A stretch of 64,000 nt of DNA, from assembly GCA_025993795.1 (NCBI GenBank), contig JAMQHL010000006.1, forward strand, positions 17,397 to 81,396, read 5' to 3'. The notes under the pieces were generated by a model that saw nothing but the letters and a program-made list of their open reading frames with translations, was not told the origin of the DNA and did not search any database. The stretch is from Planctomycetota bacterium (GTDB lineage Bacteria; Planctomycetota; UBA8742; UBA2392). The position numbers and the translations under genes were made by a program. Positions 19,376 to 33,572 of the stretch are shown here, one piece after another (positions within the stretch are counted from its first letter, which is position 1; each line of letters starts with the position of its first letter).

Positions 19376-19709
19376 TCTTGCTGATCAGCGTGACGTGGGC
19401 GATCTTGTCGTCGCGAATGCGATAGATGGCAACGGCGCGCCGTGTGTTGCCGTCTTTGCGCCCGAGCACGGTTTCGTCGTCGATCACCCAGTCGCCTGCG
19501 GTGATGCGATGGGTGATCATCGCCATCTGGTTCGGGTTCTCGCGGAAAAGCGGTCCGTAGATCTCGCGCAGTTGTGCCAACCCCTTGCAGCGCACCGTGC
19601 CGTCACCATCCACGACCTCGATGTCGTCTGTGTACGTGGCCGCAAACGCGTCAATGTCACAGGCGTTGTAAGCGTCAAGTTGCTTCTGGACGATCTCTTC
19701 CGGCGTCAT
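19368..19709 (-). CDS. SnoaL/NTF2-like protein
   Basis: VQKQLDAYNACDIDAF...VIDDETV...AIYRIRDDKI pattern. Confidence 0.85.
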
Positions 19710-20145
19710 CGTCTGCTTTCTCGTACCGCTTCTTTGTGAACATCAGTGCAACGACAAATCCCGGAACCGCAGCGGCGAGCGTTCCGAGCAGGCCGCCAAA
19801 CGCCAGCCGGATCAACTGCATGGCCGGCGCCTCGCCATCTGGACTCCGCGACAGATCAGTGCCATGAAAGTACGCGCCGACAAGGCCGAACGTTGCGCCT
19901 GCGACGCAAATGGCCGTCCAGAGCTGTTTTCCCCGCACGTCCAGCACCACGCGGACTGGCGCCAGGTCAGCTGGAGGGCGCTGTTCAGGAGGAACGTAGG
20001 GCGCGCTGCGCGGGATCATGCCAATGTAGTTCTCGAAACTGTTGGCCGCGCTCAACCACTGGTGAAACTTGCGTTCGCCCTCGACAGGGTCGCCAACGGT
20101 ATTGTCATCCGGCAGGTCTTCGGCACGCGGTTTCATGGTCGCCAT
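19675..20145 (-). CDS. Hypothetical membrane protein (two TM helices)
   Basis: Two hydrophobic segments; overlaps the start of the SnoaL-like gene. Confidence 0.6.
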   Translation of the reverse strand: MATMKPRAEDLPDDNTVGDPVEGERKFHQWLSAANSFENYIGMIPRSAPYVPPEQRPPADLAPVRVVLDVRGKQLWTAICVAGATFGLVGAYFHGTDLSRSPDGEAPAMQLIRLAFGGLLGTLAAAVPGFVVALMFTKKRYEKADDDAGRDRPEAT

Positions 20146-20194
20146 GATACTGAAATCGTGGCCGTCAGTCCCCTAATCATCACCGGAGGCCAAC

Positions 20195-20956
20195 ATGATG
20201 TTCCTGAACAATACAGAAATCGGCACCGTCACGCGCGTCGTCGGCATTGAGCCCGGCGTTGACTGCATCGTCATCGAGAACGGCATCGGCGACGTCAAGG
20301 TCGAAGCCGGCCGCCCCGGCATCGTTGAAGTCATAGCCCGCTTCAAGGCAAGTCGCGACGCAGCACCCGTGAGCGACCGCGACGTGGAAATCACGCAGGG
20401 CGACGGCTGCATGAAGATTCGTGCATCCGACGCCGCCATCGGCGCGCGCCGCGTCAGCTACGAAGTGCGCGTACCCATGGCCATCAACGTCAAGGTCAAG
20501 GTCGCCGTCGGCGGCATTGACGTGAAGGGCCTGAGCGGTGAACACAGCCTGCGCACCGGCGTCGGTGTCATCACCGTCGAAGCCGAACGCATCGCGGGTG
20601 ACAGCCACTTCCGCGCAGGTACCGGCAAGGCGAACATCTCAACCCATCGCCTGGAAGGCCGCGTACAAGGCCATATCGGTGCGGGCAACATCACGCTGAA
20701 GGCTGGCTCGGCCATGCTCGAGAGTGCGAACTTCAAAGCCGCAACCGGCAACATTCACCTGCATCTGCCGGTGACGTTCATTGGGCAGATTGACTTCAAA
20801 AGCGCCATGGGCGGCGTGAAGCTGAACAACGACATTCACCTGGTGCCGTTACAGACCACGCTGGTCGGCAGCCGCGCAAAGGGCGCCCTGGGGCAGGGGC
20901 CCGGGTTGGTCCGCGCGTCCGTCGCGGTCGGCACAATTTCGCTTGAACGCAAGTAA
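20195..20956 (+). CDS. DUF4097-like beta-repeat protein
   Basis: GGAGG RBS; repeated GxI/V strand motifs (NGIGDVKV, AVGGIDV, GVGVITV, GAGNITL, ATGNIHL). Confidence 0.75.
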   Translation: MMFLNNTEIGTVTRVVGIEPGVDCIVIENGIGDVKVEAGRPGIVEVIARFKASRDAAPVSDRDVEITQGDGCMKIRASDAAIGARRVSYEVRVPMAINVKVKVAVGGIDVKGLSGEHSLRTGVGVITVEAERIAGDSHFRAGTGKANISTHRLEGRVQGHIGAGNITLKAGSAMLESANFKAATGNIHLHLPVTFIGQIDFKSAMGGVKLNNDIHLVPLQTTLVGSRAKGALGQGPGLVRASVAVGTISLERK

Positions 20957-20975
20957 CGCTGCGGCGCGCGGACCT

Positions 20976-21008
20976 AAAAGAAAAGCGGACGGCAATCGCC
21001 GTCCGCTT
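20976..21008 (-). terminator. Intrinsic terminator of the SRP RNA (possibly bidirectional)
   Basis: AAGCGGACGGC-N-GCCGTCCGCTT stem followed by TTTTCTTTT on the minus strand. Confidence 0.8.
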
Positions 21009-21009
21009 G

Positions 21010-21097
21010 AGTTAGGTGGGCGCACCCGAGGGGGTTCGCTATGGCTGCTTCCTTTCGGACCTGACCAGGTTCACGGCCTCTCGCCGCGCCCACAACT
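21010..21097 (-). ncRNA. ffs: Signal recognition particle 4.5S RNA
   Basis: Minus strand reads GTGGGCGCGGCGAGAGGCCGTGAACCTGGTCAGGTCCGAAAGGAAGCAGCCATAGCG...GTGCGCCCAC. It carries the helix-8 signature TCAGGTCC-GAAA-GGAAGCAGC and self-complementary ends. Confidence 0.93.
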
Positions 21098-21179
21098 ACA
21101 GTATCCGCGCAGCATCGCAGGTCAAGGGATGGTTCGGGCCAACCTGGACGTTCTCACTGCGTTGAACATTGGGGTGAAC

Positions 21180-22130
21180 ATGCCGCGAGTTCTTGTACTG
21201 CTGTTGATTCTTGCGGCGCCACTGGCGGCGCAGGACACCGAGAGCTTAAGCGGTTCCGTGCCCGGTGATCGACGCCTGACGCTGCTGTATGAAATCGACT
21301 TCGGCCCCGGCAGCACAAGCTGGACGCTGGCTTGCGGCCTTACCACCAACGCCGTTGGCGGCTTGATTGTGCGGCTGATCGACCTCGATGGCCTCGCATC
21401 CAGCGCGGTACCGAACCCGACTTCCGTGGACGAGGCAGTCGTGCTCGGCGCGGGCACAGCCAATGCTGCCCTCAGTGGCAACTACAGCGGCGTACGCGAG
21501 TTTGCAGTTGAGATCGAAACCGCGCAGGGCAGTGCCGCGTCGGACTATTCTGGCAGCCTTACGAGCAATGCCGGACAGATCGAATTCGTGATGCAGGACC
21601 AGATCATTCTTGGGGCCGGCGGCTTGAAGACGGCGGTTAAGCGATTCGCATTCTGGGACGGCACAGTGCCCGCAGGGTCCATCGTGCCGGTTGGCCTTGA
21701 GCTTGATTTCGGCCCGTCGCCACGGACCGTATTTCTGCGCTTCGAGGGTGTGGGCACAAACATGGAGCGCATTGAGCTGTTTGACACCACCGGCGGCTCG
21801 GCATTGTCGCTGGCGACGTTCACCAACCCGACTGGCGGAGACGTCACCGCCGTGCCGCTGACACACAGCGGCAAGGTCTACATTCGCGTGAACTGCAAAG
21901 CGTTCGCGGGCCAGAACGGCAGCGCGGCGTGGGCCATCAACGCGCCCAGCGGCATCAGCGTGCGGCGCGTCGGCAGCAGCGACAACCAGGGCGGCACCAA
22001 GACTGAATGCAGCACCGCGCCGGCACAATCACCGGCGTGGGCGCTGGCACTGCTGTTTGCCGTTGCGGTAGTGTCGCTGCGTCTTGCTGGCACGAAACGA
22101 AGCCGGCCCGTCAAGGTCAACGCGAGTTAG
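21180..22130 (+). CDS. Secreted beta-rich protein with a Cys-containing C-terminal sorting signal
   Basis: Signal peptide MPRVLVLLLILAAPLAA; two internally similar halves (EIDFGP / ELDFGP); C-terminus ECSTAPAQSPAWALALLFAVAVVSLRLAGTKR. Confidence 0.75.
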   Translation: MPRVLVLLLILAAPLAAQDTESLSGSVPGDRRLTLLYEIDFGPGSTSWTLACGLTTNAVGGLIVRLIDLDGLASSAVPNPTSVDEAVVLGAGTANAALSGNYSGVREFAVEIETAQGSAASDYSGSLTSNAGQIEFVMQDQIILGAGGLKTAVKRFAFWDGTVPAGSIVPVGLELDFGPSPRTVFLRFEGVGTNMERIELFDTTGGSALSLATFTNPTGGDVTAVPLTHSGKVYIRVNCKAFAGQNGSAAWAINAPSGISVRRVGSSDNQGGTKTECSTAPAQSPAWALALLFAVAVVSLRLAGTKRSRPVKVNAS

Positions 22131-23320
22131 TACTTGGCGCTGGTGGGGTCTACTTCGTCGCTCCAGCGCAGCATGCCGCCGATCATATTTTTGACTTTGT
22201 GGAAGCCCTGCTCTTTCAGAAAGCGCACGACCTGACCAGATCGCTGGCCGCTGCGTCAGTAGAACACCAGCTCTGCGTCTTTCTTGCTCTCGAGTTCCTG
22301 CCAGCGCTGCCCGAACTCGGGCAGCGGAATCCACGCGTCGTAGGGCAGCTTGCAGATGTCCAGCTCATTGGCGTTGCGCACGTCCACCAGGTACGGCTTG
22401 TCGCCCGCATCCATGCGCGCCTTGAGCTGCGCGGGCGTGATTTCGTCGGCATTCACGGCTGCATTCTCCTGTGCCTGGCGCGCCTTGGCGGCTTCTTCGT
22501 CGTTGGGCACACCGCAGAACTGGTGGTAGTCGATCAGCTCATGGATCGTGCGGTTCTTGCCACAGATCGGGCATTCCGGGTCCTGGCGGATTTTCAGTTC
22601 GCGAAACTTCATGCCAAGCGCGTCAAACACCATCAGGCGGCCTTTCAGCGGCTCACCGATTCCCGTCAGCACCTTGATTGTTTCCAGCGCCTGGATGCAG
22701 CCGACAATCCCCGGCAGCACGCCCAGCACGCCGCCCTCCGCACAGCTTGGCACCATGCCCGGCGGCGGCGGATCAGGGTACAGGCAGCGGTAGCACGGCC
22801 CGCCCGGCAATCCGAACACCGTTGCCTGGCCGTCAAAGCGGAAGATGCTGGCGTAGCTGTTGGGCTTGCCCTCAAGCACACAGGCATCGTTGACTAGATA
22901 GCGCGTCGGAAAGTTATCGGTGCCGTCGGCGACCACGTCGTAGTCGCGCACAATCTGGCGCGCGTTGGCGCTGCTGAGCGCGACCTCATGGATCACGACA
23001 TCCACGTTCGGGTTCAGGTCTTTGATACGGTTCTTTGCGCTGACCACCTTGCGAACACCGACGGTGCTTTGCCCGTGGATAATCTGGCGTTGCAGGTTTG
23101 AAACCTCCACAACGTCGAAGTCCACAATGCCGATGCGGCCGACGCCGGCCGCCGCAAGATACATCGCCAGCGGCGAGCCCAGCCCGCCGGCACCCACGCA
23201 CAGTACGCTGGAGCGTTTGAGTTTCTCCTGCCCGGCTTTGCCGAATTCGGGCAGGATAAGGTGGCGCGCATAGCGCTGAAGTTCTTCGTTGCTCAAAAGC
23301 GGTGCTGCGGTCGCAGTCAT
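22127..23320 (-). CDS. moeB: MoeB/MoeZ-type adenylyltransferase-sulfurtransferase fusion with TGA (putative Sec) at the rhodanese active site, 397 aa
   Basis: RYARHL, GAGGLGS, SNLQRQ, DGTDNF, CYRC and CPIC motifs. The rhodanese domain continues past TGA (22258-22256) as RSGQRSGQVVRFLKEQGFHKVKNMIGGMLRWSDEVDPTSAKY-TAA, the typical MoeZ C-terminus. Confidence 0.92.
22227..22244 (-). promoter_or_regulatory. Putative SECIS hairpin of moeB
   Basis: TGA, an 11-nt spacer, then GCGATCT-GGTC-AGGTCGT (7 bp including G-U pairs). Same spacing and GGUC loop as the E. coli fdhF SECIS. Confidence 0.7.
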
Positions 23321-29422: not shown

Positions 29423-31960
29423 CTACTCCCTGGAGACCACCGTGTCATAGAGCCCGTAGTGCGTTAGCCCCTCGTGGCTCTCGACACCGGTATAACGCAG
29501 CGAGGCGTCTTCATAGCGGCGGAAGGCGAATACGGCCTGATTCATCTGCTCCGTGTTGAATACCTTCAGATTCACCAGCAGGTGGAAATCTTGAACAGTC
29601 AGGCCGGTGACAGCCAGGAACAGGTCAGGTTCCAGCTTAGTGATTACATCCTGCAGCGTGTTCTCGCGGAAGTCGGTCAGGTACATGAACGCCGGAATGC
29701 GCGTGGCAAATTTAATCAGCTTCTCCTGCACCAGCTTGCGTTTTGACTTGTACTCCTTCTCTTCATCTGTGAGTTGCTTCTTTTGCTTCTCAGTAAGGTC
29801 CTTGTCCTTGGCCTTGTTTTTGAGTTCCTTGACCTTCTCGGCCTTGTTGATGATCGTCTCGATGATGTTGTCGCCCAGCGAGCGCCATCCCTCGATGCGC
29901 TCCACAGCGGCCATTGCTTCGGGGTTGTCGAGCACGCGGCGCAAGGTGTCGTTGTCCACGTTGACAAGTAGCGCGCTTTCCCACTTACGCGCCAGCAGCG
30001 TGGCCGAAGTTCCCGCCATGGCGATGTCGAGAATGCCACCCGCGTCGATCTGCGTCATGTTCGCGCCGTCGTAGGCCAGCACGGGCAGGAACGACACAAG
30101 ATCCTTTACCGCGTTCTCGGGGTTCGGCTCATTCGGTGAGAGGCCGATGCCATACTCGGACAACTGCCTCAGCGCGCGCGTGGGCGCGAAGTCAAAAACG
30201 AAGCACACCGGCTTGAGGACTTCTTCTTCATTCGGGTCGTCGCCGTTGGGGTTCTTGATCGACCAGGGCGACTGCACGCGGAACGCGGCCTGAAAGTACG
30301 TCTCTGGCGATTTCAGATTGCGCAGCATGAGGATGGACGACCACTGCGGCACAGTCACGCCGGTAGTCAGTTTGCCGCAGGACAGCGTGATTGTCTTGGT
30401 ATCGAAGCCGCTGCCGATGGCCTTACGGACGGGCGGCAATGCCTCCAGGCCGATTCCTGCGGAAGGACCGGCGGCAGGCACGACGGTGTAGTCGTGCCAG
30501 AAAACGTTGTGCTTCTCGGCCAGCAAGTTCGCCATCGCGTGGCACGCCGCCACGTTGGGCAGGAACCAGAACGAGTGTTGTAGATAGGGCAGCAGCCGCA
30601 CGTCGGAATAGGGAAAGGGCGGTTTCGTGCCGGTCTTCAGGTGCTCGACCGACTTGGGTGCATACCCGCCGCGTATGATGTCCAGCCATTTCTGGACGTC
30701 GTCCTTGTGTTTGAACTGTGCCGTGTGACCCGTGCCCGTGGCCGCGAAGAACTCGTTGAGGTCGAACTCGTCGAACTCTCCGGCGCTGGCGATGGCCAGC
30801 AATTCGTCAGGCATCTGGTACGTCAGCAGGCGCATCTGCGGCAATGCGCCGTATGGGTTCCACTTGCTCTTGTTCTTGTTGGCGAACTCTTCCTTGGCGC
30901 GCTGTTCGTCAGTGTAGGTCCAGTTGAAAATCTGCTCTTCAATGAACTCGCCAGAGGACAGGGCCTTGAACGGCGTGCCGGAAAGATAGAGGTACGCCCT
31001 GGTAGTCATGGGCAGGAAGTCGGTTTCCCTTTCCAGCGGTTGCTGCAAGTCCGCAATCTTGTCCTTCAGCTTCTTGGCGTCCTCAAGCCGCGCTTCGGCT
31101 CGTGCGATTGACTCTTCCTCACCCTCGAACAGTTCCTTGGCCGTCTCGCGCCAAGCGCCAAAGTGGTATTCGTCGAATACAACCAGGTCCCACTTCACCT
31201 TGTGCAACCACTCGTTCTTGGCCTTGATGTCCCCGAACGCATCTTTGCCCAACAGGTCCTGAAACGAGCCAAAGTATACCAACGGCTTCTTGCTCGATAC
31301 TTTCGTCGGGTCGCTGCCGGACGCGCGCGACTGGTATTGCCAGCCGTCAAAGTCCACGTGAGATTCAAGGTCTGTTTGCCAGGCGTCTTCGACGGCGGGT
31401 TTGAACGTCACCACCAGTACCCGCTTTGCGCCGAGTTTCTTCGCGAGTTGGTAGGTGGTGAAGGTCTTCCCAAAGCGCATCTTCGCGTTCCAGAGGAAGC
31501 GGGGAACGGCATGCATGTCCTCTGCCCAGCGCGAAAGAAAGTAAGCGTGCGTCACCTTTACGGCCTCTGCCTGTTCACGACGCATCTCAAAAGTCTGGTG
31601 GTGTGTCCCGGTGAAGCGCTGGCCTGTGCGCAACTCGGTTAGCACTGTCTTCACGTCTGCGACTGTGCAGCGCACCCACTCCAGTTCGGGATTCGCAAAG
31701 CCCTTCTTGATAAGCGCAGCGCGCACCTCATGGTCGGTGAAGATACTGCCGTCGTCACGCTCGGCGAGCTCGTCAAGTTCGATGGTGAAGTTCTTGATCG
31801 CAGCGGTCTTGAGTTGCTCGGCTACACGCTGTTTCACTTCCCTTAGCGTGTAGCCCACCTTGAGTAGACCCTTGTGCGCTGCGTCGTCTATCGAGTAGGC
31901 GTAAATGCGCGGCCGTGCAACCGGCTTCGGCGCAAGTATCTCCTCGATGGTCTTACTCAT
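29423..31960 (-). CDS. GIY-YIG/T5orf172-like nuclease fused to an SF2 helicase (restriction-subunit-like)
   Basis: N-terminal IYAY...LLKVGYT...RVAEQ; Walker A NAKMRFGKT; DEYH; LSGTP; LTTGVTVP; QAAFRVQSP. Confidence 0.85.
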   Translation of the reverse strand: MSKTIEEILAPKPVARPRIYAYSIDDAAHKGLLKVGYTLREVKQRVAEQLKTAAIKNFTIELDELAERDDGSIFTDHEVRAALIKKGFANPELEWVRCTVADVKTVLTELRTGQRFTGTHHQTFEMRREQAEAVKVTHAYFLSRWAEDMHAVPRFLWNAKMRFGKTFTTYQLAKKLGAKRVLVVTFKPAVEDAWQTDLESHVDFDGWQYQSRASGSDPTKVSSKKPLVYFGSFQDLLGKDAFGDIKAKNEWLHKVKWDLVVFDEYHFGAWRETAKELFEGEEESIARAEARLEDAKKLKDKIADLQQPLERETDFLPMTTRAYLYLSGTPFKALSSGEFIEEQIFNWTYTDEQRAKEEFANKNKSKWNPYGALPQMRLLTYQMPDELLAIASAGEFDEFDLNEFFAATGTGHTAQFKHKDDVQKWLDIIRGGYAPKSVEHLKTGTKPPFPYSDVRLLPYLQHSFWFLPNVAACHAMANLLAEKHNVFWHDYTVVPAAGPSAGIGLEALPPVRKAIGSGFDTKTITLSCGKLTTGVTVPQWSSILMLRNLKSPETYFQAAFRVQSPWSIKNPNGDDPNEEEVLKPVCFVFDFAPTRALRQLSEYGIGLSPNEPNPENAVKDLVSFLPVLAYDGANMTQIDAGGILDIAMAGTSATLLARKWESALLVNVDNDTLRRVLDNPEAMAAVERIEGWRSLGDNIIETIINKAEKVKELKNKAKDKDLTEKQKKQLTDEEKEYKSKRKLVQEKLIKFATRIPAFMYLTDFRENTLQDVITKLEPDLFLAVTGLTVQDFHLLVNLKVFNTEQMNQAVFAFRRYEDASLRYTGVESHEGLTHYGLYDTVVSRE

Positions 31961-33572
31961 CGTTTGATTCCATCGGGCGAATCAAACTCTCGATGTAAGC
32001 GATCTCGTCATCCGTAATGCCGTACTTCGCATAGAGCTTTTTGTCGGTCCATGTCGTTGAGAAGTCTTGCATCGGGACAAACGAATACGCGGAACGCGCT
32101 AGGTCCTGAGCAGACGAACGCAATGCAATGAGAAAGCGGAAAAGCCTTGCGACGACGTACGAGAAGCAGTTGCGCGCTTCGTTCTCAGTGTCGTATGCGC
32201 CGAGCAGAACGTAGGTTTCAGTTACGACCGAACCGGGGGGGATGACTCCAGACAACGAAAGGACGCGCCTCTGCCCATTCTTGTCAACCTGACCCGCGTG
32301 TTCCGATGACGACTTGGATGTGAAAACTTTCCACTTGTCGATGAGCTCTTCGCCAGCGGTTACTTCGGACCTGGAAGTCCAAGCTCTTCCCCCGCTCTGT
32401 AGAACAAGCAGGTTGTGCTTCGCAGACTTTTTGGGCGATCCTCGAAAATACGTCCGGAGCCCGAATGGCTTTTGCGAACTGACCTGAAGTTCAAAGCGCT
32501 TGTTTTCCGGGAGTGACAAAGACTGTGAGCCGGTCTCTACGGCCATCACCTTTCGCAGGATAGAAAGGCCGCGATTGCTTCGGATAAATACTTCTGCACC
32601 TTCTTCCAGCAGCGGGCGAATGGCTTCGGACGAGCCCATGCCGTGTTCAAACTCAGTGACACTGCAGTCGCCTGGGTTGTCTTTGTCCCAGAGGAAGTAG
32701 CAGATGCCGCCGGCTACATCGACGCTTGGGAAAACCTGCCGACTATCGGGATAGTCGATGAGTTTCCTAACCCGACCGTCGGTCAGCATTTTCTTCCGAA
32801 AGTCATCGAGGCCACGACCTCCAAACAGCCAGCGAGACGGGACAACCATGGTTAAGAGGCGCGGCTCAAGTGCCTTCGCCTGGTCCACGAACTTGTTGTA
32901 AATGGGAATGGCGCTCGCTCCATAGCCACCATCATCTAGCTGATAGGGCGGATTTCCGATGATGACGTCGAACTGCATTGCGCCTCCAAACAACTCGTTC
33001 AGGCGAGTCTTGATGTTGTCAGTGTGGATGAACGCATAGGCGTAGCTTTCGAGCCCCTCGCCACGGTCTAGCGCCTTTTGGCTCGCGCCGCAGTACTTGC
33101 AGTTGCCATTGTCCCATGCGTGTTCCATGCGATTGAACCAGACGTTGCCCTCCTCGCTGGCAAACGACTTCGCAATTGAATGCTTGCCGTTGGCGTGCTT
33201 GGAGCAATACAGACTCCGGCGAGAAATCAGGCTGGTCAGGCGCGTGGTGGCGATGCCGAATACCTGCTGGGTCAGGATGTGATCGACGCGTTTCTCCAAG
33301 TCCGGGATTTCCAGAGCAAGCCCATTGGTCAAGCGGGCAGTGATTTCACGCAGGAACACGCCGGACTTTGTGCATGGGTCAAGAAACGTGACCGTCTTGT
33401 CGGCCCAAATGTTTGCGCCCTTGTGCGCGGTCGCCCAGGCCTCCGCCAGCGTGTCGAGCATGCGGTTGGCGAACTCGGGTGGCGTGAATACCTCGTCGTT
33501 GCTGAGGTTCGCGATGCACGTCAGCACGTCGGGGTTGCGGCCGCGCAAGGCAAAGCCCACTTGCTCCGTCAT
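31953..33572 (-). CDS. Eco57I-like adenine DNA methyltransferase with a C-terminal specificity region
   Basis: DEVFTPP, FLDPCTKSGVFL, catalytic FDVIIGNPPY, VPSRW; C-terminus WTDKKLYAKYGIT. Confidence 0.85.
   Translation of the reverse strand: MTEQVGFALRGRNPDVLTCIANLSNDEVFTPPEFANRMLDTLAEAWATAHKGANIWADKTVTFLDPCTKSGVFLREITARLTNGLALEIPDLEKRVDHILTQQVFGIATTRLTSLISRRSLYCSKHANGKHSIAKSFASEEGNVWFNRMEHAWDNGNCKYCGASQKALDRGEGLESYAYAFIHTDNIKTRLNELFGGAMQFDVIIGNPPYQLDDGGYGASAIPIYNKFVDQAKALEPRLLTMVVPSRWLFGGRGLDDFRKKMLTDGRVRKLIDYPDSRQVFPSVDVAGGICYFLWDKDNPGDCSVTEFEHGMGSSEAIRPLLEEGAEVFIRSNRGLSILRKVMAVETGSQSLSLPENKRFELQVSSQKPFGLRTYFRGSPKKSAKHNLLVLQSGGRAWTSRSEVTAGEELIDKWKVFTSKSSSEHAGQVDKNGQRRVLSLSGVIPPGSVVTETYVLLGAYDTENEARNCFSYVVARLFRFLIALRSSAQDLARSAYSFVPMQDFSTTWTDKKLYAKYGITDDEIAYIESLIRPMESNDE

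Follow-up and report, generated by a model that had tools for sequence, protein, structure and literature searches.

The DNA analysed here is a stretch of 64,000 nucleotides (nt) from a planctomycete (contig JAMQHL010000006.1, positions 17,397 to 81,396; hereafter the window), which contains on its minus strand a gene for a MoeB/MoeZ-type adenylyltransferase/sulfurtransferase with one in-frame TGA. This TGA, at codon 355, very probably encodes selenocysteine (Sec), and it occupies the position of the catalytic cysteine of the C-terminal rhodanese domain. Four direct observations carry this reading: the anatomy of the gene, the occurrence of Sec/Cys pairs among close relatives, a translation-type constraint on the codons following the UGA, and the presence of the Sec machinery in the genome. 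The features of the gene are the following, in window coordinates.

22127..23320, minus strand: whole gene, MoeB/MoeZ-type adenylyltransferase/sulfurtransferase, 397 codons (ATG 23318-23320, TAA 22127-22129, one in-frame TGA)
22568..23272, minus strand: ThiF/E1 adenylation domain, residues 17-251 (Pfam PF00899, 2.7e-83)
22742..22744, minus strand: codon of Cys193 in the E1 loop (VPSC; VPSCAEGG), which is the Sec site of earlier-described MoeB selenoproteins and is Cys here
22157..22438, minus strand: C-terminal rhodanese domain, residues 295-388 (Pfam PF00581, 4.5e-15)
22256..22258, minus strand: predicted Sec codon, the in-frame TGA (codon 355) that replaces the catalytic Cys of the rhodanese domain (Y-U-RSGQRS)
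22227..22244, minus strand: hairpin GCGAUCU-GGUC-AGGUCGU, resembling a selenocysteine insertion sequence (SECIS) and starting 11 nt after the UGA
22130..22255, minus strand: the 42 codons 3' of the TGA, from the RSGQRS loop through the C-terminal ...VDPTSAKY, conserved as coding

The minus-strand context of codon 355 is ...DAELVFY-TGA-RSGQRSGQVVRFLKEQGF...WSDEVDPTSAKY, the TGA being the sole internal stop of the frame. The original prediction, made by a model from the letters of this DNA, had the frame continuing past ...ELVFY through the TGA to a TAA, which is exactly what is seen. The read-through product comprises 397 residues, and relatives align across residues 1-397. The E1 domain exhibits the motifs GAGGLG (43-48), CYRC (176-179), and CPIC (250-253), the CxxC pair corresponding to zinc motifs; it aligns with E. 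coli MoeB (1JW9) and with Uba4 (6YUB), and the rhodanese domain aligns with that of Uba4. Because the TGA aligns with the cysteine of the CRRGQDS active-site loop in the solved structure of Uba4 (PDB 6YUB), the catalytic position of codon 355 is fixed. The loop itself, U-RSGQRS, exhibits the expected C-R-x-G-x-R/S pattern with Sec replacing Cys. Among the NCBIfam models, those for MoeB and MoeZ fit best: the protein scores 522 bits for PRK07411 (cyanobacterial-type MoeB, cut-off 633) and 469 bits for PRK07878 (MoeZ, cut-off 647); it exceeds the cut-off of PRK08762 (MoeB, 461.5 bits against 449), but the best stretch covers the E1 part only.

We compared the 23 genomes of the GTDB family, all of which contain the MoeZ-type gene. 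Among the 22 full-length orthologues, codon 355 is TGA in eight and a Cys codon in 14, and the alignment with MoeZ homologues, Uba4 included, places Cys in the column of the TGA. Counted by genome, eight contain TGA alone, one (G012) contains a TGT copy and a partial TGA copy, and 14 contain only Cys (TGC or TGT); the same codon is therefore TGA in nine of 23 genomes, which agrees with what the original prediction implied for close relatives. The two G012 genes, a Cys copy (L027, G012:C57) and the partial Sec copy (L136, G012:C179:1-834), are located on different contigs and may represent either genuine paralogues or a bin in which two strains are mixed. Outside the family, only Cys is observed at the site: among the best 80 loci from genome contigs, TGA is present in 0 of 65 more distant loci (in-family: 5/15), and among the best 80 from metagenome contigs in 0 of 75 (in-family: 1/5), these lists being ordered by similarity to the query, so that Sec forms in remote lineages may be missed. 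Across 401 sampled genomes from the phylum, an internal stop is present in no out-of-family match spanning residue 355, among the matches listed, 35 weaker ones lying beyond the list.

In a protein tree built from the 23 genes of the family and four outgroups, the Sec state requires at least four changes (bootstrap range 4-4), with TGA in four separate clades, and TGT forms adjoin Sec forms in g4 and g7. Taken without a direction of change, this tree indicates that the site alternates between Sec and Cys within a lineage that is Sec-competent.

The codons following the TGA are those expected of a translated region. In all nine Sec-form genes, neither an indel nor a stop interrupts the 42 codons that follow the TGA; their reading frame, their length and the position of the final stop are conserved, and the RSGxRS loop directly after the TGA is invariant (9/9). 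The ratio of nonsynonymous to synonymous substitution rates (dN/dS) of these 42 codons, estimated from seven representative Sec-form genes (the near-copies G019 and G021 were omitted), is 0.05-0.53 in 18 of 21 pairs, dS being saturated in the other three. Such values, without indels, indicate a translated region rather than a remnant left after a nonsense mutation. As a separate observation, the gene ends in TAA or TAG in 9/9 Sec forms, and in TGA in 3/14 Cys forms of the family and 4/4 outgroups; these numbers are too small to test.

These data bear on a first alternative, namely that the TGA is a genuine stop and that the gene is truncated or decaying, with a 354-residue product comprising the E1 domain and a broken rhodanese domain, the last 42 codons being an untranslated remnant. 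Public gene callers agree with such a stop: among the 58 closest public protein clusters (72-93% identity), 20 have no rhodanese domain call, and all 20 (303-362 amino acids, aa) end at the tyrosine before codon 355, including one of 351 aa named "putative adenylyltransferase/sulfurtransferase MoeZ" by NCBI. In addition, the genome contains a second E1 without a rhodanese domain, and the hairpin by itself is not statistically compelling. Nevertheless, nonsense mutations arising at random would not be confined to a codon that is one base away from Cys, and here TGA is found at the same catalytic codon in nine of 23 genomes and four separate clades. Together with the constraint on the downstream codons, the invariant loop and the full Sec machinery described below, this makes a genuine stop very unlikely. 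As public gene calls stop at codon 355, metabolic reconstructions of these planctomycetes from wastewater and bioreactors lack the rhodanese domain and its sulfurtransferase function. Of the listed clusters, the 62 with 61-66% identity are full length without exception. At the same level of identity, P0060, P0061, P0064 and about 30 others are triple fusions of ThiS/MoaD (PF02597), ThiF and rhodanese of about 480-500 aa, in which the carrier is joined to its own activating enzyme.

The TGA is present in other sequence data as the original prediction would have it, with contigs from four public runs of three studies covering it with 0 differences (X11, 22233-22829; X12, 22000-22603; X13, 22038-22373; X9, 22198-22788). 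For the authenticity of the TGA, we consider the comparative argument to be stronger than contig coverage.

The genome of the window, an uncultured Planctomycetota metagenome-assembled genome of 3.29 Mb that is about 85% complete and has 62% GC, contains the complete Sec machinery: selA (530 bits, curated cut-off 268), selB (332.9 bits, curated cut-off 242), selD (397 bits, above the curated cut-off), and a tRNA-Sec (69.2 bits, anticodon TCA) that adjoins selA. Family-wide, selA is found in 23/23 genomes and selB in 22/23, the genome without a selB match (G020) being 86% complete. The selD of the window's genome (L009, G000:C70:24866-25786, minus strand) also encodes a selenoprotein, its in-frame TGA being part of the canonical GAGUGCK motif. 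Among the long open reading frames (ORFs) of the genome, TGA is the most frequent ordinary stop (338/812), and the genome is therefore not TGA-recoded. Taken with the Sec/Cys pairs, the purifying selection downstream and the independent assemblies, this machinery strongly supports the seleno-MoeZ that was originally proposed, with Sec at the persulfide site of the rhodanese domain.

A second alternative is that UGA355 is read through without Sec, either by a near-cognate tRNA inserting Trp or Cys or by a low-level failure of release factor 2, which would yield a full-length protein with a non-Sec residue. It draws on the fact that translation downstream of the UGA is supported, while Sec as residue 355 is predicted. 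A rhodanese is known to require Cys or Sec as its nucleophile, and Cys is present in every non-TGA relative, that is, in 14/22 orthologues of the family and in 65/65 and 75/75 loci outside it. A dedicated Sec system with a second Sec gene (selD), the use of TGA as the commonest ordinary stop, and the conserved hairpin at SECIS distance also argue against readthrough of this kind, which we regard as highly improbable.

The hairpin GCGAUCU-GGUC-AGGUCGU, which the original prediction located 11 nt after the UGA, is indeed present at 22227-22244 on the minus strand; it comprises seven pairs, including two G-U, and has a free energy of -6.5 kcal/mol when folded alone. Bacterial SECIS elements are generally recognised, as in bSECISearch, by a stem-loop shortly after the UGA with a G in a small apical loop. 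In 9/9 Sec forms a hairpin is found 11-13 nt after the UGA, and its G-rich apical loop coincides with the Ser-Gly/Ala codons in the second RS(G/A) motif; the stem has 6-9 uninterrupted pairs in five of them and one G-G mismatch in four. Two classes can be distinguished. In class A, nt 15-21 pair with nt 26-32 around a GGUC loop; it comprises the Sec forms of the window, G004 and G009, together with the g4 TGT forms (g4 being a genus). In class B, nt 14-20 pair with nt 24-30 around a GGC or CGGCG loop; it comprises the g7 and g4 Sec forms, and also the g7 TGT and g6 Cys forms. In class A, 95.9% of cells are paired, compared with 16-41% when the partner is slid, and there is a compensatory change at 1/7 pairs (A-U to G-C). 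In class B, the corresponding values are 83% and 35-55%, with compensatory changes at 3/8 pairs, and 0/500 shuffles reach the covariation score. The 5' arm in the window gene is made of three consecutive rare codons, CGA (6%), TCT (5%), and GGT (13%), whereas TGC forms of the same genus exhibit CGC-AGC-GGC/GGG at the arm and no hairpin. A hairpin kept in TGT forms may mark a recent reversion from Sec to Cys.

The original prediction described this hairpin as an fdhF-like SECIS, by comparison with an E. coli fdhF element that it gave as UGA, 11 nt, and a hairpin with a GGUC loop. This description is supported in part: a GGUC-loop hairpin is found at 11 nt, with compensatory changes in relatives, but the stem exceeds the lengths obtained by synonymous recoding only marginally (P = 0.07), and similar hairpins occur in Cys forms. 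The hairpin is thus a plausible candidate SECIS, consistent with Sec decoding and not decisive alone. An Rfam scan of 22100-22400 found no matching family, only mir-604 and Chloroflexi-1 at chance level and far below the gathering score, Rfam being without a usable bacterial SECIS family.

On the proposed mechanism, UGA355 would be decoded as Sec by SelB and tRNA-Sec, probably helped by the hairpin starting 11 nt downstream. In MoeZ, MOCS3 and Uba4, small ubiquitin-like sulfur carriers are activated at their C-terminal glycine through adenylation by the E1 domain; sulfur borne by the rhodanese residue then converts the acyl-adenylate into a thiocarboxylate. By analogy, the E1 domain of the window protein would adenylate the C-terminal glycine of small sulfur carriers, and its rhodanese Sec would carry the sulfur turning the carrier acyl-adenylate into a thiocarboxylate. 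Loading would give a selenosulfide (Enz-Se-S-), with an acyl-S-Se-enzyme as the covalent intermediate. Compared with sulfur, selenium is a better nucleophile, electrophile and leaving group and resists irreversible over-oxidation, so that both loading and release should gain in speed and robustness. Candidate carriers are encoded elsewhere in the genome: a MoaD (82.6 bits), a ThiS (82 bits), and a SAMP1/CysO-like protein whose gene adjoins homoserine dehydrogenase (L131 1501-3132). The genome also contains MoaE and a JAMM/desampylase-like gene followed directly by a CysM-like cysteine synthase (L132 1501-2930, G000:C23), an arrangement that recalls the mycobacterial Mec-CysO-CysM thiocarboxylate route to cysteine.

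Several points weigh against the reading of UGA355 as Sec in a sulfur-carrier activator. Sec insertion as such is something that we infer from genes alone. Two of the four runs whose contigs cover the TGA are metatranscriptome libraries, and contigs from RNA libraries do not prove that the MoeZ-type gene is transcribed; X12 and X13 come from a study which may be the window's own source. Concerning the hairpin, two different pairing registers are found among the Sec forms, and synonymous recoding of the window gene yields stems of at least the observed seven pairs in 7.1% of cases (P = 0.071), while P is about 0.33 for the four Sec genes of g4, whose stem is interrupted; this high chance of pairing arises because the amino-acid sequence predisposes the RNA to pair. 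Hairpins of 6-7 pairs are found in 8/14 Cys forms (6/6 TGT, 2/8 TGC) and are thus not Sec-specific. The fold of the 68 nt after the UGA is no more stable than that of shuffled sequences (z = -0.16), and its minimum free energy (MFE) structure is a different hairpin; the generic 30-nt MFE of the window gene gives P = 0.155 against synonymous recoding. The SECIS candidate of selD in the same genome has a UUC loop, unlike the MoeZ hairpin, and therefore no shared consensus can be drawn from the two genes. Finally, none of the MoaD, ThiS, SAMP1/CysO-like, MoaE, JAMM and second E1 genes adjoins the MoeZ-type gene, so the substrates of the enzyme are predicted by analogy. As for the choice of test, generic MFE was dropped as a test for SECIS after the value of z = -0.16, and register-specific and comparative tests were used instead; the 30-nt MFE test, with P = 0.03-0.16 across the Sec forms, discriminates little in a 62% GC genome.

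The original prediction further proposed a selenium switch, in which Sec insertion competes with termination and scarce selenium leads to a truncated E1 form with a function of its own. In bacterial selenoprotein genes generally, translation terminates at UGA if Sec-tRNA is limiting, and, as the window gene encodes the only E1-rhodanese fusion found in the genome, selenium supply would gate the sulfurtransferase arm. Nothing observed here is specific to a switch. A stop at codon 355 leaves the E1 domain with 60 of the about 94 rhodanese residues, not a clean E1; as the truncated product ends inside the rhodanese fold (residue 354 of 295-388), misfolding is likelier than a clean E1. Moreover, close relatives swap Sec and Cys at least four times without other visible change, which would abolish a switch and argues for equivalent function rather than for a dedicated switch. 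We find this proposal very improbable. Similarly, there is little chance that the Sec-rhodanese, beyond accelerating sulfur relay, either mobilises selenium (Enz-Se-Se-, with carrier selenocarboxylates for a selenium cofactor or metabolite) or makes every thiocarboxylate-dependent pathway of these planctomycetes (molybdenum cofactor (Moco), thiamin and CysO-type cysteine synthesis) selenium-conditional through termination versus insertion at the UGA, as close relatives exchange Sec and Cys freely, which points to simple equivalence of function.

In the neighbourhood analysis, no sulfur-carrier, Moco, thiamin or selenium gene was found beside the MoeZ-type gene, whose neighbours are a divergent ion-channel gene and a convergent ORF of unknown function; the context therefore gives no clue to its function. 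On the plus strand, 19395-22130 comprises four consecutive ORFs (114, 133, 253 and 395 aa) without a Pfam match, the 395-aa ORF converging on the MoeZ-type gene and its end overlapping the MoeZ stop codon by 4 nt. On the minus strand, 29423-33572 comprises an ORF for an Eco57I-type restriction-modification methylase (539 aa), then an ORF of 845 aa that matches ResIII helicase weakly, and is probably a restriction-modification or defence module.

With regard to known systems, the window protein resembles MoeZ/MoeZR (Mycobacterium), MOCS3 and Uba4 in having an E1 domain and a C-terminal rhodanese domain, GxGxxG, two CxxC zinc motifs and the E1-loop Cys, and its six-residue rhodanese loop aligns residue for residue with the MoeZ/MOCS3/Uba4-type loop; these enzymes differ in using Cys at the rhodanese site. 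Compared with the fdhF SECIS as described above, the hairpin of the window gene has no bulged U in its stem, the SelB is planctomycetal, and relatives use a second register.

A MoeB selenoprotein family has been described from 11 Sargasso Sea sequences (Zhang, Fomenko & Gladyshev 2005, PMC1088965) and 19 Global Ocean Sampling (GOS) sequences (Zhang & Gladyshev 2008, PMC2398784), and is listed in review tables (PMC9312934, PMC13188914). Its members are likewise ThiF/MoeB-type E1 proteins, often with a C-terminal rhodanese domain, in which Sec, encoded by UGA, takes the place of a conserved catalytic-type Cys that many homologues retain. In the GOS set (PMC2398784), Sec is in the E1 domain of 19/19 sequences, with VPSU[A/S]V[A/S]GVLG in 18 and one short, odd read with two U, and Cys (YCYKGxRS) is present in every read that reaches the rhodanese loop. 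Against these sequences, the pattern of the window gene is reversed: its E1 loop has Cys (Cys193), and its rhodanese loop the predicted Sec (Sec355). The same order, in a sister family, contains L046 (G024:C171:4767-5525), with an N-terminal rhodanese domain and an E1 domain, a TGA at the E1-loop Cys (APSUGEAGVLGV), and a Cys in the rhodanese loop; by these motifs, L046 is a sister-lineage example of the earlier-described MoeB selenoprotein type. In family f85, five genomes appear to exhibit a similar pattern, with one TGA inside the E1 match.

Stand-alone rhodanese selenoproteins have also been listed, as 'Rhodanase-related sulfurtransferase' and 'Sulfurtransferase COG0607' in GOS data (PMC2398784) and as 'rhodanese-like forms 1-5' (PMC13188914). 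They resemble the window protein in having Sec at the catalytic Cys, for example YUQGGIRA and HUGSGGRAS, with U-x-x-G as in URSG; they differ in being single- or double-rhodanese proteins without an E1 adenylation domain, and the MoeZ C-terminal signature is present in none of the supplement sequences compared, namely the first few per group. For Sec at the rhodanese site of a MoeZ-type fusion, no report was found in the literature on selenoproteins, MoeZ, rhodanese and Planctomycetes, the figures of the 2005 paper, other supplements and subscription journals being outside this scope.

The window gene would represent a second, independent Sec site for E1-rhodanese sulfur-carrier activators, and the first case found of Sec at the persulfide-relay residue of an E1-rhodanese fusion. 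Its family offers a natural allelic series among genes that are 76-94% identical, comprising Sec forms, TGT-Cys forms with a retained hairpin, and TGC-Cys forms without a hairpin, which could show the benefit of selenium in persulfide (Se-S) chemistry and the decay of a SECIS after the loss of Sec. Compared with both groups of known selenoproteins, the window gene appears to join a known enzyme to a known kind of Sec site, in a combination that has itself probably gone unrecognised.

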